From contig CADBRR010000007.1 of the NCBI GenBank assembly GCA_902797145.1, forward strand, positions 1 through 62,719: a DNA stretch of 62,719 nt. The letters are read 5' to 3'. A program made the position numbers and the translations under genes. The DNA is from an uncultured Eubacteriales bacterium (GTDB lineage Bacteria > Bacillota > Clostridia > Christensenellales > CAG-138). Shown here in pieces: positions 8,974 through 14,686 of this stretch; within the stretch, counting starts at the first letter, position 1, and the number at the start of each line of letters is the position of its first letter. The notes below the pieces were generated by a model. The model worked only from the letters and a program-made list of their open reading frames with translations, was not told the DNA's origin and ran no database searches.

Positions 8974-9000
8974 GAGCAAGGCTTCTATTCGAGCCTTGCT
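8974..9000 (+). repeat. left copy of 27-bp direct repeat (terminator hairpin, att-like)
   Basis: GAGCAAGGCTTCTATTCGAGCCTTGCT, identical to 14650-14676. Contains the stem GAGCAAGGC/GCCTTGCTC. This copy lacks a following T-run. Confidence 0.9.
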
Positions 9001-9206
9001 CAGACTTGTAAAATTTGATTTAACTTTTCGAGAAACACTCCCAAATCTTTTTAATTGTTTTTCCCCTCATATAAGTAACAAATCAAAATCAAAAATTGCA
9101 ACCATTTCCCGAAATAATTTTCTCATATACTAATACCCTTGCAAAATTGAAAATGCAAAAACTGCAAAGAGATTTTTGGCATAATATACAAATATTTTTT
9201 AAACTC

Positions 9207-9235
9207 TTGACTTTGTCAGTACCGTCGAATATAAT
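9207..9235 (+). promoter_or_regulatory. near-consensus sigma-A promoter of the island operon
   Basis: TTGACT (9207-9212), a 17-nt spacer, then TATAAT (9230-9235). The palindrome TGAC-TTT-GTCA overlaps the -35 element. Confidence 0.6.
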
Positions 9236-9267
9236 ATAAAATGAATTATATTGTTGGAATGAATTGT

Positions 9268-10491
9268 ATGAAATATATTACTGCAAGCCAAGCTGCACAA
9301 AAATGGGGAATATCTCAAAGACGTGTTCAATTTCTTTGTGCTGAAGGCAGAATAGACGGCGTGTTTAAATTGGGTGAAGCGTGGGCTATCCCTACAAATG
9401 CTTTAAAAACAGGTGATTCAAGAATGAAACATAAAAAAGGAGTTACAAAAGTAATGAATGTAATAGATTTATTTTGTGGCTGTGGTGGTTTATCATACGG
9501 ATTTGAAAAAGCAGGATATAATATTTTATTGGGAATAGATAACGATTCAAAAGCCTTGGAAACTTTTGAATTAAATCATAAAGGAGCAAAGTCGATTTGC
9601 AGAGATATAACAACTGTATCTTATGAAAAAGATATAAAGCCGATTATAGGAAACAAAGAGATTGATTTAATTATTGGTGGTCCGCCTTGTCAGGGTATGT
9701 CGTTATCAGGGCCGAGAAAATTCGATGACCCGAGAAATAGTCTATATTTTTCATACATTAGACTTGTAGAAGAAATTAAACCAAAGGCCTTTGTAATTGA
9801 AAATGTTCCAGGATTGGTAGAGCTTTTTAATGGCAAAATAAAAGATAGTATTATTGAAAAATTTACTCATATGGGATATAACATTCAATATCGAATTTTG
9901 TGTGCAGCCGATTATGGTGTTCCGCAAAGCAGGCGAAGAGTTGTTTTTGTTGGATTGAAAAAAGGTAAATTTGTATATCCTGAGCCATTAAATGAAGTTG
10001 TTACTTGTGAAATGGCACTGTCTGATTTACCAACACTTGAAAATAGTGTGGGAACAGAACAGGCAGAGTATTTAACACCGCCACAGAACGAATACCAGAA
10101 GTTAATGCGCTGTCATTCAAATATAGTAAGAAACCATATTGCTGCAAACCATTCTGAAAAAGTACAGAAAATTATTGCATTAGTTCCAGACGGAGGAAAT
10201 TATAAAGATTTGCCTGAAGAATATATTAATTCTCGCAATTTTCATGTTGCATGGACAAGGTTTGCAAGCAAAAAGCCTGCACCAACTATTGATACGGGGC
10301 ACAGACATCATTTTCACTATAAATTTAATAGAGTTCCTACTGTTCGTGAATGTGCAAGGTTACAATCATTTCCTGATAATTTCATATTTTTAGGAAATAA
10401 GACACAGCAATTCAGGCAAGTTGGAAACGCTGTTCCTCCGTTACTTGCTCAATGTTTAGCGGAAAGTTTAAAGGAACAAATAAAGGAGTGA
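9268..10491 (+). CDS. DNA (cytosine-5) methyltransferase with N-terminal HTH (excisionase/MerR-like) domain
   Basis: N-terminus MKYITASQAAQKWGISQRRVQFLCAEGRIDGV is HTH-like. m5C motifs are present: I DLFCGCGG, IV GGPPCQGMS, VI ENVPGL, VIII QSRRRVVFVG, X GNAVPPLL. The ORF-track start 9241 lies at or before the predicted TSS, so 9259 or 9268 is more likely. Confidence 0.9.
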   Translation: MKYITASQAAQKWGISQRRVQFLCAEGRIDGVFKLGEAWAIPTNALKTGDSRMKHKKGVTKVMNVIDLFCGCGGLSYGFEKAGYNILLGIDNDSKALETFELNHKGAKSICRDITTVSYEKDIKPIIGNKEIDLIIGGPPCQGMSLSGPRKFDDPRNSLYFSYIRLVEEIKPKAFVIENVPGLVELFNGKIKDSIIEKFTHMGYNIQYRILCAADYGVPQSRRRVVFVGLKKGKFVYPEPLNEVVTCEMALSDLPTLENSVGTEQAEYLTPPQNEYQKLMRCHSNIVRNHIAANHSEKVQKIIALVPDGGNYKDLPEEYINSRNFHVAWTRFASKKPAPTIDTGHRHHFHYKFNRVPTVRECARLQSFPDNFIFLGNKTQQFRQVGNAVPPLLAQCLAESLKEQIKE

Positions 10492-10499
10492 ATTGTACA

Positions 10500-11912
10500 A
10501 TGTATGAAATACCAAGCGAATATTACTTAAGATTGCACCATTGCCGTCCGAGATTTAAAGGCGACATTGAAAATGTTTTGATTTATATGGCAGAAGAAAT
10601 ATCTAAACTTCCTGAATTGCCGTGTGATGAATTTGATGATAAAATCAATCAGGCAATCAGATGTTTTCCCGGTAATATTAATAAAACAATAAAGACAATA
10701 AACAATTGGAGAACAGAAATATCATCACTTTTTGGTTTTATACAAAATAATAGTACAAGTTGCAAAGCTGGGTTGAGGGCAAAAGAATTAGCAGAAAAGC
10801 AAGATTTAGTTGAATGCTTTAAAATGTTTCTTTATAATTTTCAATATCCCGGTGCACATATAAAATCACACGAAATATTAAAACTAATAGAAGCCGGAGT
10901 TAACTTTAAACCGGCACAATATCTATTAAAAGTTCTAAAATATGCAGAAGACAGTACGGGCAAAAGACAATATATAACAAAAGCTGAATTTTGCCATTGT
11001 ATTTTTAATGATTTACGTTGTGTTCGTGACAAAGAAAATTTTTCGTTGACTTGGAATAGAATTACCAAAAACAGAGATAATGAAGTTGAATACGAACAAG
11101 CAGGCGATATTATCCGCTACGCCGGAGACATAATTGACTATATGGAAATCGCCAACCTGCTTGTTACACATGACGGATATAATTTTTATATAAATACTCT
11201 TGAAAATGCAGCTGTTTTAAAATTTATAAATTCAAATGATTGGTTTTCTGATTATGACCAAATGATTGAAAACCGTAGTGCTACACTTGAGGAAATTAAC
11301 AACTGTAAAAATCGGTGGTTTGAGTATGTAAACAGGGATATTGCAGATACAGTATTTGAAACCGATGTACTTGCATTTATATCCTCTGACGAAAATGAAT
11401 ATACAGAATTGCAGAAGCAAAGTTTAAATCTATACGACGAAAAACTTGAAGATACTGCGAGATTAAGAACAAAGGATATAGGCGACATTGGAGAAAGTCT
11501 TGTTTTTGGACACGAATGTCAAAGAATTAAAATCGGTGGTCGTAATGATTTAATCCATTTAATAAAAAGGATTCCTACACAACTTGCCGTAGGTTATGAT
11601 ATTCAGTCTGTTGAATTGGATGAACGGAAAAGATATATCGAAGTTAAATCAACAATAAGTTCAAAACCGTTGCATTTTAATAAAATACATCTTACTCCAA
11701 ATGAATGGAGTACTGCACAAACAGTAAATGACAGATATTTTGTGTATAGACTTATGATTAGCAAGACGGAAAAGAAACTGTATATTTTACAAGACCCTGT
11801 TAGGCTATATAAAAATGATTTGATAGATATGTCTATTAAAGACGGTGCAGAAATAACATTTTATCCGCATAAGTCTGGTAATTATGAGGAGTTGTTATCA
11901 TGGAAAGGTTAA
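10500..11912 (+). CDS. two-domain restriction endonuclease candidate: helical recognition domain plus C-terminal DUF3883-like PD-(D/E)xK nuclease
   Basis: The C-terminus DIGDIGESLVFGHE...GYDIQSVELDERKRYIEVKST...LTPNEWSTA...YFVYRL matches the GxxGE / GYDI / IEVK / NEW / YxxYR pattern of DUF3883 nuclease domains. The ATG at 10500 follows an AAGGAG SD. The stop overlaps the next gene's start by 13 nt. Confidence 0.7.
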   Translation: MYEIPSEYYLRLHHCRPRFKGDIENVLIYMAEEISKLPELPCDEFDDKINQAIRCFPGNINKTIKTINNWRTEISSLFGFIQNNSTSCKAGLRAKELAEKQDLVECFKMFLYNFQYPGAHIKSHEILKLIEAGVNFKPAQYLLKVLKYAEDSTGKRQYITKAEFCHCIFNDLRCVRDKENFSLTWNRITKNRDNEVEYEQAGDIIRYAGDIIDYMEIANLLVTHDGYNFYINTLENAAVLKFINSNDWFSDYDQMIENRSATLEEINNCKNRWFEYVNRDIADTVFETDVLAFISSDENEYTELQKQSLNLYDEKLEDTARLRTKDIGDIGESLVFGHECQRIKIGGRNDLIHLIKRIPTQLAVGYDIQSVELDERKRYIEVKSTISSKPLHFNKIHLTPNEWSTAQTVNDRYFVYRLMISKTEKKLYILQDPVRLYKNDLIDMSIKDGAEITFYPHKSGNYEELLSWKG

Positions 11913-12865
11913 AAGTTGCTTCACTTTTTTGTGGGTGTGGCGGTACAGATGTAGGCTTATTAGGTGGATTTGATTTTCTTGGGAAACACTACACAGAAAA
12001 CAGAATTGATATTGTTTATGCAAATGATATTGATGACAATGCTTGTAGTATATTTAAAGAGAATTTCAATATAACACCCGATAACAGAGATATTAGAGAA
12101 GTTTCATCAAACGATATTCCTGAATTTGATATTCTTACAGGTGGTTTTCCTTGTCAATCATTTTCTATTGTCGCTCAAAATCCTAAAAGATTAGGCATAA
12201 AAGACGACAGGGGAAAATTGTTTTTTGAGATGTGCAGAATATTGAAAGAAAGACAGCCAAAATGTTTTATTGCAGAAAATGTTAAGGGGATTTTAACCGC
12301 AAACAATAGAAATGCATTCCCGTTAATAATTAAAGAATTTGAGGATTGCGGATATGATGTTAAGTACGATATTTTAAATTCTGCCGATTTTGGAGTTCCG
12401 CAGAAAAGAGAGCGTGTTATCATTGTTGGTTTTAGAAAAGATTTGAATATAAGATTTGAGTTTCCCAAAGTAGAAATTACCGAAGAAGATGAGTATACTC
12501 CGCTTAAAACTGTTATTGAAAATGATGTTGATGAAAGGTATTATTTCAGCCAAAAAGCGGTTGACGGAATGATGAGAAAACGAGCGACAATGAACAAAGG
12601 TCGTGCACAGGATATTGAAAAGCCGTGTAATACTGTTGGATCACATTTAGCAAAAGTTTCATTGAATAGTACCGACCCTGTTTTAATGGTTAATGGAAGG
12701 TATAGAAGATTTACCCCCCGTGAAGTTGCAAGAATACAATCATTTCCTGAAAATTTCAAACTTGTTGGAAGTGAATCCGCACAATATCGTGCGTTAGGAA
12801 ATGCAATACCTCCAATAATGTTTTGGTACGTTACGAATACTGTAATGGAATATTTAAAAAAGTAG
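11900..12865 (+). CDS. DNA (cytosine-5) methyltransferase (second copy)
   Basis: Motifs I SLFCGCGG, IV GGFPCQSFS, VI ENVKG, VIII QKRERVIIVG, then TPREVARIQSFPENF and X GNAIPP. Confidence 0.92.
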   Translation: MERLKVASLFCGCGGTDVGLLGGFDFLGKHYTENRIDIVYANDIDDNACSIFKENFNITPDNRDIREVSSNDIPEFDILTGGFPCQSFSIVAQNPKRLGIKDDRGKLFFEMCRILKERQPKCFIAENVKGILTANNRNAFPLIIKEFEDCGYDVKYDILNSADFGVPQKRERVIIVGFRKDLNIRFEFPKVEITEEDEYTPLKTVIENDVDERYYFSQKAVDGMMRKRATMNKGRAQDIEKPCNTVGSHLAKVSLNSTDPVLMVNGRYRRFTPREVARIQSFPENFKLVGSESAQYRALGNAIPPIMFWYVTNTVMEYLKK

Positions 12866-12894
12866 TCAATATTTTTAGATAGAAAGGTAATACT

Positions 12895-14322
12895 ATGGAA
12901 AATGAAATTGTAATTAAAAATACTACCGAAATTATAACAAAAAACTTTTCATTATTTGAAAACTATTTAATGGCATTTGGATTGCCAACAGATAATGTTA
13001 TTGCATCTGGTGAAGAACGTCAAAGAATAATGAATGCATTACCCGATTTTCTACAACAATTACCTCCTGAAATAAAGAAAGATGCGAAATATATTTCAAA
13101 ATTCATAGCAGGAAGTGCCGTTGGGCTTTTTGATGCTGCCCTTAATTTTGTATGGAATGAAGTTATACTTAATCTTAGAAAAAAAGTAATAGTATATGGT
13201 ATTGATTACTTTTACGATAGTGCTATTGGCGGAACAGTAAGGGAACAGTATAAAGACGAAAAAGACCTACCATCTGTAAAAGATCAAGTGTTATTAGATA
13301 CTTGTCATAAACTTGAACTTTTGTCTGATATTCTATACAGAAAACTTTGTCATATATTAGATATGAGAAATCAAATTGGGGCATCACATCCCAATGATTA
13401 TGAAATTAACGCATATGAACTTTTGGGTTGGTTACAAACGTGCATCCAAGATGTTTTTATGGATAAGATTTCTGAGTCTGCCCTAACAGTCAAATCGATA
13501 ATTGACAATGCTAAAAATATACAAAAAGAATTAGATGAGGAATATTTAGCTCAATTTACAAAATCCATAAAAGAACTTTCTCCATCTATGGTATCAAACC
13601 TTCTTACAAGTTTGTTTGGTATATTTATATCACCTGATAATAGCGAAAATACAATTCGGCGAAAAAACATTTTATCTTTGTCTATCATCGCTTGGGAGTA
13701 CAGCACAGAAAGTGCTAAATATGCATTAGGTGAAAAAATTGATTCATATAGAGCTAACCTAGATGAATATAAGACACAACAAGCGGAATTATTTTTTAAA
13801 AAATGTAAAGGACAAAAATATTATACCAAGGATGCTAAGACAATTAAAATAACTTTACTTTGTGAGCAATTAGAAAATGTCCATTATAGTTGGGATAATT
13901 ACGCTAACGAGGTTCCAATTGCACGAGAAATAATGAGTATGATATCAAGTGTTTCAGATATTCCTAAGATACGTTTAGAAAGTCTTGTAAGAGTGTTTTT
14001 AATATGTAGAATTGGAAATGATAGATATTACTGTGAAGGTGTTTCTTTAACAGCGAGCAGATTCTATGATATTTTTTTCAAATTGTTAGATGAAAATGCA
14101 GTTGTTTGTGTTATAAATTTTTTGAAAGAAAACGGAAATCGTCATTTACTTACAGGGACACATAGACCCAATCATGTAAAGCACATTTTCAGTATTATGA
14201 AATCAGAATTATTAAGCGAGAGATGTAATTTATTATTGGACTATATCATTGATTTTAATGGTAAATTAGAAAATGTATTTTCTACGAAAGATTTTAAAGA
14301 ACTTTCTAATGGAGTTTTATAA
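12895..14322 (+). CDS. uncharacterised 475-aa helical protein with Rx6H (HEPN-like) motif; candidate defence effector
   Basis: SD GAAAGG 8 nt upstream. Co-oriented, 29 nt after the second MTase. R158-NQIGAS-H165 (nt 13366-13389) follows GLFDAALNFVWNEV. No TM segment or signal peptide, and no other family recognised. Confidence 0.6.
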   Translation: MENEIVIKNTTEIITKNFSLFENYLMAFGLPTDNVIASGEERQRIMNALPDFLQQLPPEIKKDAKYISKFIAGSAVGLFDAALNFVWNEVILNLRKKVIVYGIDYFYDSAIGGTVREQYKDEKDLPSVKDQVLLDTCHKLELLSDILYRKLCHILDMRNQIGASHPNDYEINAYELLGWLQTCIQDVFMDKISESALTVKSIIDNAKNIQKELDEEYLAQFTKSIKELSPSMVSNLLTSLFGIFISPDNSENTIRRKNILSLSIIAWEYSTESAKYALGEKIDSYRANLDEYKTQQAELFFKKCKGQKYYTKDAKTIKITLLCEQLENVHYSWDNYANEVPIAREIMSMISSVSDIPKIRLESLVRVFLICRIGNDRYYCEGVSLTASRFYDIFFKLLDENAVVCVINFLKENGNRHLLTGTHRPNHVKHIFSIMKSELLSERCNLLLDYIIDFNGKLENVFSTKDFKELSNGVL

Positions 14323-14524
14323 ATTATAAGAAATGATATTAAGTGTTAATTTACCTAATCTTATTTTTATGCAAATAAGTGAATTTTTTAATATAAATGT
14401 AGAACGATAGCATCCCATTTTGAGGATTTGAATGTAAAACCATTCCTTGTATGTTTTCATCCATTTTAACCCCATAAAACAGGCGATTTTCAACACTTAT
14501 TGCATTGCATTTCACCCCATATAT

Positions 14525-14565
14525 GAGTTGAGCATACCACACGATAAATATGATATGCTCAACTC
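14525..14565. repeat. 12-bp perfect inverted repeat (hairpin) in the non-coding right arm of the island
   Basis: GAGTTGAGCATA (14525-14536) and TATGCTCAACTC (14554-14565) with a 17-nt loop. The nearby palindrome TTGAC-AAACC-GTCAA lies at 14577-14591. Confidence 0.7.
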
Positions 14566-14649
14566 TCTGCACTCCTTTGACAAACCGTCAATACTTATAC
14601 TGTTTTATAGAGGACTGCCATTTGTGGACCTTTTTGACAGTCTAGTCTG

Positions 14650-14676
14650 GAGCAAGGCTTCTATTCGAGCCTTGCT
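14650..14676 (+). repeat. right copy of 27-bp direct repeat; functional buk/SBP terminator
   Basis: Identical to 8974-9000. Followed by TTTTGCTT. 10 nt from the SBP stop at 14687. Confidence 0.9.
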
Positions 14677-14686
14677 TTTGCTTATC

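Follow-up and report, generated by a model that had tools for sequence, protein, structure and literature searches.

A predicted HEPN ribonuclease with a C-terminal alpha-solenoid as a candidate single-gene defence effector behind a BpuJI-type restriction-modification system

Here we describe a gene, referred to as gene X, that follows the genes of a BpuJI-type restriction-modification (R-M) system in a 62,719-nucleotide (nt) stretch of DNA from an uncultured Eubacteriales bacterium (contig CADBRR010000007.1); this whole stretch is called the window. Gene X (12895..14322, + strand) opens with an ATG and encodes a 475-amino-acid (aa) protein in which an N-terminal HEPN-like domain is joined to a C-terminal alpha-solenoid. 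The balance of the evidence leans towards gene X being a self-contained, single-protein HEPN defence effector of the abortive-infection or anti-mobile-element type. It appears to behave as an autonomous cassette that gathers in defence islands and mobile elements, often 3' of another operon, an autonomy suggested by the lack of a conserved neighbour together with a fixed architecture of ~475 aa.

The N-terminal domain

HEPN domains are defined as four-helix up-down bundles with frequent inserts between helices 2 and 3, carrying a conserved Rx4-6H motif in which a polar residue (mostly N, D or H) follows the R, and a conserved acidic residue in helix 2, typically in an Ex3[KR] arrangement (PMC3710099). 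AlphaFold models of the gene X protein (predicted local distance difference test, pLDDT, 81 for the full length and 77 for the N-domain alone) contain a four-helix core of HEPN topology at approximately residues 63-190 (13081..13464, + strand). Helix 1 (residues 65-76) and helix 2 (79-101) are followed by a helical insert (102-144), helix 3 (145-162) ends in MRNQIG, and a loop that contains H165 (163-172) leads into helix 4 (173-188). The putative ribonuclease (RNase) active-site motif, R158-N159-x5-H165 (Rx6H; 13366..13389, + strand), is spelled R158-N159-QIGAS-H165; it agrees with the Rx4-6H pattern, has a polar residue after the R, and lies in the predicted fold at the position expected of a HEPN motif. 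Within the local sequence LDMRNQIGASHPN, R158 is encoded by AGA at 13366-13368 and H165 by CAT at 13387-13389, where an earlier note on this stretch, made from the sequence alone, had placed them.

The Rx6H motif is the best-conserved feature of the gene X family. R158, N159 and H165 are invariant in an alignment of 38 homologs. Among 66 diverse representatives (21-41% identity), drawn from a hidden Markov model (HMM) search to which no motif filter was applied, each of the three is retained in 65. Poor conservation of R158 and H165 had been set beforehand as a possible refutation of the HEPN reading, and the two residues proved to be conserved. In the long helix preceding the motif, D80 and W87 are likewise each kept in 65/66, and helix 2 further carries E89 (58/66) and R95 (62/66).

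When the N-domain model was compared with PDB structures using Foldseek, 10 of the 18 best matches were HEPN proteins, including MtlR (3brj, 6kcr; probability 0.84), Csm6 (8pe3, 8jbb), AF_0298 (2hsb), HepT (7ae6, 6m6w) and 1wwp; against a viral structure library, the same model matched only unrelated helical proteins (probability <=0.15). The only recurrent weak Pfam matches among family members are to the HEPN families DUF4145 and Abi_C. Abi_C (PF14355, AbiJ-type HEPN) is matched by 9 of 33 N-domains (best E 0.096, below the gathering threshold) and by 2 of the diverse set of 66 at E 0.1, also below that threshold, and DUF4145 (PF13643) is matched below the gathering threshold by 2/66 relatives (best E 0.0072) and not by the window protein. 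Profile alignment with hhalign against HsdR-type DUF4145 domains gave P 0.0012 over the motif region and P 0.06 for a C-domain control, and alignment with the single E. coli MtlR sequence laid its R-x4-H onto R158/H165 (P 0.59, not significant). We consider it quite probable that the N-terminal domain has a HEPN fold, and it appears to be a divergent one, closest to the DUF4145/MtlR and AbiJ branches. The HEPN reading that the earlier note gave to the motif is strengthened by its near-universal retention, its place in a four-helix HEPN-like topology and the HEPN-rich top structural matches, with no single match reaching significance.

The C-terminal alpha-solenoid

Residues 196-475 (13480..14319, + strand) are modelled as stacked helical hairpins at pLDDT 80-94 and form a putative sensor or substrate-binding domain. 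The earlier note had stated that the ~300 C-terminal residues match nothing recognisable; this can be refined, because the full-length Foldseek search is dominated by ARM, PUF and HEAT repeats (best PDB matches at E>=0.025, not significant), from which the C-terminal half is read as an alpha-solenoid. Homology to PUF proteins is not inferred from these matches, as the solenoids found are generic. Several residues are near-invariant, namely W267 (63/66), N335 (65/66), E339 (65/66) and Y391 (62/66), and also G382, and the presence of polar residues among them points to a specific binding site on the solenoid rather than a plain scaffold.

Taken as a whole, the gene X protein is acidic (isoelectric point 5.6) and, by DSSP on the AlphaFold model, has helices as its only secondary structure. 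Its highest Kyte-Doolittle 19-residue mean is 1.35, indicating no transmembrane segment, and its N-terminus is acidic, unlike a signal peptide, in keeping with the earlier description of an all-helical protein lacking both features.

Family size, distribution and annotation

In a collection clustered at 90%, 602 homologs of the gene X protein were found at E<=1e-3, all named ones being annotated as "hypothetical protein", and when the N-terminal 181 residues were used in an exhaustive HMM search, 523 clusters at 50% identity resulted. The best 150 of the 523 cluster representatives are all ~475 aa long or fragments, for which reason the two-domain architecture of the family is considered fixed. 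The family is represented in Firmicutes, Proteobacteria (Shewanella, Vibrio, Pseudomonas, Yersinia), Planctomycetes, Cyanobacteria, Actinobacteria, Elusimicrobia and others. Compared with an 88%-identical DNA copy (locus L088), gene X has a ratio of nonsynonymous to synonymous substitution rates (dN/dS) of 0.064, with similar values in both domains; this, together with the number of homologs and clusters, argues that gene X is real and under constraint. Genomic copies are split into two open reading frames (ORFs) or truncated in ~6/63 cases (loci L025, L056, L068, L072, L077 and L078), which suggests frequent inactivation of the kind common for costly or toxic accessory genes.

The protein was called uncharacterised in the earlier note, and database comparisons agree: it has no significant match among Pfam, NCBIfam or PADLOC models, and the family is covered by none of them. 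Its sole match in PADLOC-DB v2.0 is a spurious one to Cas7g (E 3.6e-4, over 48 residues of the solenoid), and its strong match to PHROG 27609 leads to a group of 'unknown function'. In the literature, searches on the accession of an E. coli homolog (WP_001460374) and on defence genes of HEPN-solenoid type returned no description of the gene X family. One homolog, P0043, carries the precomputed tag PF27235.1 and has no match in the Pfam copy used, which lacks this model; it may be that part of P0043 already falls within a family added to Pfam very recently.

Genomic context of relatives

The earlier note proposed that the R-M system is hard-wired to a HEPN-type effector. The closest relative of gene X, in L088, is 93% identical at the aa level and is likewise preceded by the M2 methylase (92% identical in aa sequence), and among the BpuJI-type loci compared, gene X is present only there. 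It is absent from three other BpuJI-type M1-R-M2 loci (L105, L106 and L107; restriction endonuclease 45-68% identical; 2-3 kb downstream searched). Copies that are 77% identical (L017 and L089) sit 32 nt behind a complete ABC-3C conflict system (L017 2-3359, L089 3-1003) consisting of an Mrr_cat + CTD6 effector, MC2 and a 619-aa ABC-type ATPase, and their DNA similarity to the window extends from 12954 to 14332 only, i.e. over the gene itself. ABC-3C thus seems to take the place held by the R-M system in the window. These loci do not bear out hard-wiring, and the linkage to the BpuJI-type system appears recent and local rather than a conserved two-layer design.

Elsewhere, homologs are found in diverse surroundings. 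One overlaps the end of an Hma system by 11 nt, another lies between Shedu (35 nt away) and a DUF900 hydrolase gene, and in Clostridium perfringens a homolog stands between hsdS/GmrSD and hsdR of a type I R-M locus, adjoining the GmrSD-like gene, the only case in which type I R-M embedding was seen. The HsdR protein encoded beside this homolog (L004 9562-12894) itself bears a DUF4145 HEPN domain at its N-terminus, the motif R being replaced by K (KLGNVAVH), and the locus thereby sets two HEPN-type domains side by side. On integrative conjugative or mobilisable elements (ICEs/IMEs), homologs adjoin genes for a relaxase, MobC, a type IV secretion system (T4SS) and a giant SNF2 helicase; a Streptococcus homolog adjoins an epsilon-antitoxin fragment, and a Paenibacillus homolog lies past the lysis genes at a prophage end. 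In PLSDB, 89 plasmids, 49 of them conjugative, carry a homolog in accessory regions, and the carriers include conjugative plasmids of E. coli, Shigella and Klebsiella. Defence genes that flank family members encode HmaB/C, MADS, pAgo-SIR2, GajB (Gabija), LmuB (Lamassu), SduA, CBASS cyclase and effectors, type I, II and IIG R-M enzymes, ABC-3C and several PDC candidates.

No neighbour is constant. A PADLOC scan of two genes per side in ~60 genomic loci found no system matched by more than three members. In an all-against-all comparison of neighbours (+/-3 genes) in the same loci, no family occurred in more than five loci, the family present in five being guaA, and no conserved antitoxin or partner gene was found. 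A same-strand upstream gene lies within 100 nt in 18 of 61 loci. The survey of gene neighbourhoods suggested in the earlier note, which asked whether homologs always stand next to methyltransferases or nucleases, was accordingly answered in the negative. A predominance of housekeeping contexts had been named as a finding that would speak against a defence role; the diverse defence and mobile-element neighbours argue otherwise, with some copies in housekeeping surroundings. Small islands by guaA (GMP synthase) contain homologs in L016, L023, L024, L031, L033 and L072, and four of the guaA islands, which are related, share upstream neighbours, the direct one being a small gene of a family that matches an XRE-type helix-turn-helix (HTH; Pfam HTH_3) in L032; this points to guaA-adjacent sites as a recurrent integration hotspot. 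The stopping of homology at the gene borders, together with repeated 3' placement behind unrelated defence operons, suggests that defence islands are assembled from single-gene units.

The R-M genes, transcription and the low-GC island

In the window, gene X is preceded on the + strand by M1 (9241..10491), a 5-methylcytosine (m5C) DNA methyltransferase gene (PF00145, E 2e-79) with an N-terminal HTH, by the gene for a BpuJI-type type IIS restriction endonuclease (10452..11912; PF11564 BpuJI_N, E 8e-109 from residue 18, and a NOV_C nuclease domain), and by M2 (11900..12865), encoding a second m5C DNA methyltransferase (PF00145, E 1e-79). The published BpuJI system has this same M1-R-M2 layout and no fourth gene (PMC1874659). 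The three related loci likewise differ from the window in lacking a fourth gene, and gene X appears to be an add-on rather than a component of the BpuJI-type system. As listed, the endonuclease ORF overlaps M1 by 40 nt; since Met17 corresponds to nt 10500, 9 nt past the M1 stop, and BpuJI_N is matched from residue 18 onwards, the true start is probably the ATG at 10500 and not that at 10452. The HTH of M1 (9241-9405; residues 12-55) gives weak matches to HTH_17 and HTH_59 and may represent a controller-type element, fused to the methyltransferase, for autoregulation of the R-M operon. A promoter-like -10 box ends only 6 nt 5' of the annotated M1 ATG, because of which translation of M1 may in fact begin at one of the ATGs further downstream.

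A 29-nt gap separates the M2 stop codon (12863-12865) from the start of gene X, and a Shine-Dalgarno-like GAAAGG (12882..12887, + strand) lies 7 nt 5' of the gene X ATG. The strongest promoter-like site of the region, TTGACT-17-TATAAT (9207..9235, + strand; a consensus match only, 11/12), lies 5' of M1; a consensus scan found no terminator-like site on the + strand from 9003 to 14648, and the first terminator-like hairpin 3' of gene X at 14649-14678. Coordinates and scan therefore agree with the earlier description of a 475-aa gene placed 29 nt past M2, with its own Shine-Dalgarno sequence and no terminator between. Given the site before M1 and the uninterrupted run to 14648, gene X is probably read through from the R-M promoter and shares transcription with the R-M genes. 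Co-transcription, as the earlier note had proposed, is thus plausible, and a second, weaker promoter-like site inside M2 (12516-12544) makes separate transcription of gene X from within M2 possible.

Two identical copies of a 27-nt direct repeat, GAGCAAGGCTTCTATTCGAGCCTTGCT, each of them a terminator-like hairpin, lie at 8974..9000 (left) and 14650..14676 (right), the latter forming the first such hairpin past gene X. The GC content between the repeats is 0.28-0.35, compared with 0.38-0.47 in the flanks. The 5.65-kb island so delimited consists of M1, R, M2 and, at its 3' end, gene X; it is bordered by a convergent butyrate kinase gene (buk) and an NMT1-type ABC substrate-binding-protein gene, and contains no recombinase gene. 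From its sequence, the four-gene island looks like a single insertion that duplicated an intergenic terminator hairpin. An empty-site allele was sought in metagenome contigs by means of the 27-nt repeat and gave no exact match, and no RNA antitoxin, Rfam RNA or repeat array was found near gene X in the window island.

Proposed mechanism and alternative explanations

We propose that the gene X protein would be a latent HEPN RNase that is switched on through its solenoid upon infection or plasmid entry. The RNase site of the protein, independent of metal, would be built from R158-N159-x5-H165 and, like that of other HEPN RNases, would presumably become complete in a dimer. The solenoid, with its near-invariant N335/E339 patch, would keep the nuclease inactive, and would act either as sensor of a trigger derived from the invader or in choosing the RNA to be cut. 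Gene X would accordingly be expected to confer a defence phenotype. Its linkage to the R-M genes is understood as physical co-residence, and we infer no functional dependence on the R-M enzymes.

A number of results weigh against this proposal. The Foldseek matches of the N-domain to PDB structures have a best E of 0.54 and TM-scores of 0.38-0.46, none significant; the Pfam HEPN matches all remain below the gathering score; the hhalign probability against DUF4145 is 16-19%, which is sub-significant; and PDB sequence searches with the whole protein and the N-domain profile returned nothing useful. The H165 loop is modelled at pLDDT<50, and the acidic residues of helix 2 are not in the usual Ex3[KR] spacing. 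With regard to defence, some copies, such as a Leptotrichia homolog after guaA, lie in housekeeping surroundings away from any defence gene, the family is not represented among the models of PADLOC v2, no homolog was found among the lytic and temperate phages of INPHARED, and both the RNase activity and the defence role of family members are so far predictions.

On another reading, for which these sub-significant scores speak, the N-domain would be an unrelated helical bundle whose R, N and H serve another role such as ligand binding or a different catalysis, and the moderate model confidence and poorly modelled motif loop would fit such a reading. We regard it as improbable, as weak independent signals converge on HEPN, namely the kind of motif and where it lies in the fold, the insert that separates helices 2 and 3, the large share of HEPN folds in the top structural matches, and the fact that HEPN families are the only recurrent Pfam matches. 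A HEPN-fold protein could also be non-catalytic, binding RNA or regulating in the manner of MtlR, for example by tuning neighbouring genes; the best fold match is indeed this mannitol repressor, whose family consists in part of inactive HEPN domains (PMC3710099). Inactive HEPN lineages, however, typically lose the R/H motif (PMC3710099), whereas here R, N and H are each kept almost throughout, and the variable neighbours provide no constant regulatory target, which makes a non-catalytic role very unlikely. Service to a mobile element, whether as an addiction or stabilisation toxin, a counter-defence factor or an establishment factor carried as cargo of ICEs, IMEs, plasmids and prophages, would account for the adjoining relaxase, MobC, T4SS and SNF2 helicase genes, the many conjugative plasmids among the carriers and the epsilon-antitoxin fragment in Streptococcus. 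We give it little weight, since no conserved antitoxin or partner gene was found, the surroundings of gene X in the window contain neither an Rfam RNA nor a repeat array, and many chromosomal copies lie in defence islands away from mobility genes. A HEPN-MNT or other two-gene toxin-antitoxin module was also considered and rejected, no conserved adjacent antitoxin gene having been found in the ~60 loci (+/-3 genes).

The position of gene X behind M2 raises the further possibility of a PrrC-like guard, in which the protein stays latent while an adjacent DNA-targeting system is intact and its RNase fires when a phage anti-restriction factor disables that system. The short, terminator-free gap to M2, the retention of M2 by the 93%-identical relative, the prrC-like position of the C. 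perfringens homolog between hsdS/GmrSD and hsdR, and the homologs directly behind Hma, Shedu and ABC-3C would all be compatible with such a guard. The partners, however, are unrelated enzymes, which makes a specific protein-protein latch unlikely; three BpuJI-type loci do without gene X, many copies have no adjacent defence system, fewer than a third of the loci surveyed (18/61) have a close same-strand upstream gene, and gene X has neither a PrrC-type NTPase domain nor a PADLOC match to PrrC/RloC, so that we hold the guard to be unlikely. A similarly doubtful, partner-independent variant would make gene X a portable second-layer guard cassette that inserts 3' of unrelated DNA-targeting operons (BpuJI R-M, type I R-M, Hma, Shedu, ABC-3C), with the solenoid detecting a common sign of first-layer failure, e.g. 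a DNA-mimic anti-restriction protein or other broad phage counter-defence factor, upon which the HEPN RNase would fire; if true, it would represent a generic, partner-independent version of the PrrC principle.

Should the favoured reading of gene X as a self-contained defence RNase be correct, its family would constitute a large, cross-phylum, single-gene immune effector family that current defence-annotation tools miss. Its wide distribution, its occurrence on plasmids of enterobacteria and the ease with which it can be tested make the family, in our view, one of moderate interest.

Comparison with known systems

The classic R-M-coupled case is PrrC, which lies inside the EcoprrI type I locus, and PrrC and RloC are both anticodon nucleases embedded in type I R-M loci. 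They have been assigned to HEPN, and R-M-embedded HEPN genes were catalogued by Anantharaman 2013 (PMC3710099). An R-M system with a HEPN gene is thus documented and not new in kind, whereas the earlier note had taken the configuration not to be a named system. Gene X shares with PrrC and RloC the placement of a HEPN-type RNase gene in or beside an R-M operon, most closely in the C. perfringens homolog between hsdS and hsdR. It differs in that PrrC and RloC combine an N-terminal ABC-type NTPase with a C-terminal nuclease, whereas gene X has no P-loop and no PADLOC match, and most of its copies lie outside R-M loci.

The single-protein HEPN defences RAZR, Ishtar and HepS are working precedents that support the single-gene effector reading. 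RAZR, a ring-activated zinc-finger RNase, is a single-protein defence in which the DUF4145-type HEPN site, R146/H154 with its long R-to-H spacer, is essential for catalysis and for defence (PMC13017515). Gene X resembles it in being a single protein with a divergent DUF4145-like HEPN domain and a long R-to-H spacer; a further likeness, proposed on the side of gene X, is a second domain that recognises the trigger, with abortive infection as the outcome. RAZR is much smaller and carries its zinc ribbon at the N-terminus and its HEPN domain at the C-terminus, whereas gene X has an N-terminal HEPN domain, a 280-residue alpha-solenoid and no zinc ribbon, and remains below the DUF4145 Pfam threshold. 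Ishtar proteins are monogenic anti-conjugation proteins with an N-terminal HEPN (bioRxiv 10.64898/2026.07.06.735840). They are similar to gene X in joining an N-terminal HEPN domain (DUF4145 or DUF3644) to a C-terminal domain of unknown function, and in their patchy distribution and association with defence genes; by description they are set apart from it by a C-terminal beta-sheet/alpha domain in place of a solenoid.

AbiJ and AbiD/AbiF (lactococcal; PMC3710099) and HepS (Salmonella; PMC13043305) are likewise single-gene HEPN effectors on mobile elements or prophages, in which HEPN is joined by an accessory domain that differs from family to family and is presumed to detect infection. AbiJ-type proteins are further linked to gene X by the weak Abi_C matches of 9/33 family members. 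With this group gene X has no significant sequence match and no PADLOC Abi match, and its domain order and solenoid differ. The combination of HEPN with an alpha-solenoid would add another sensor type to the one-protein HEPN systems represented by RAZR, HepS and Ishtar.

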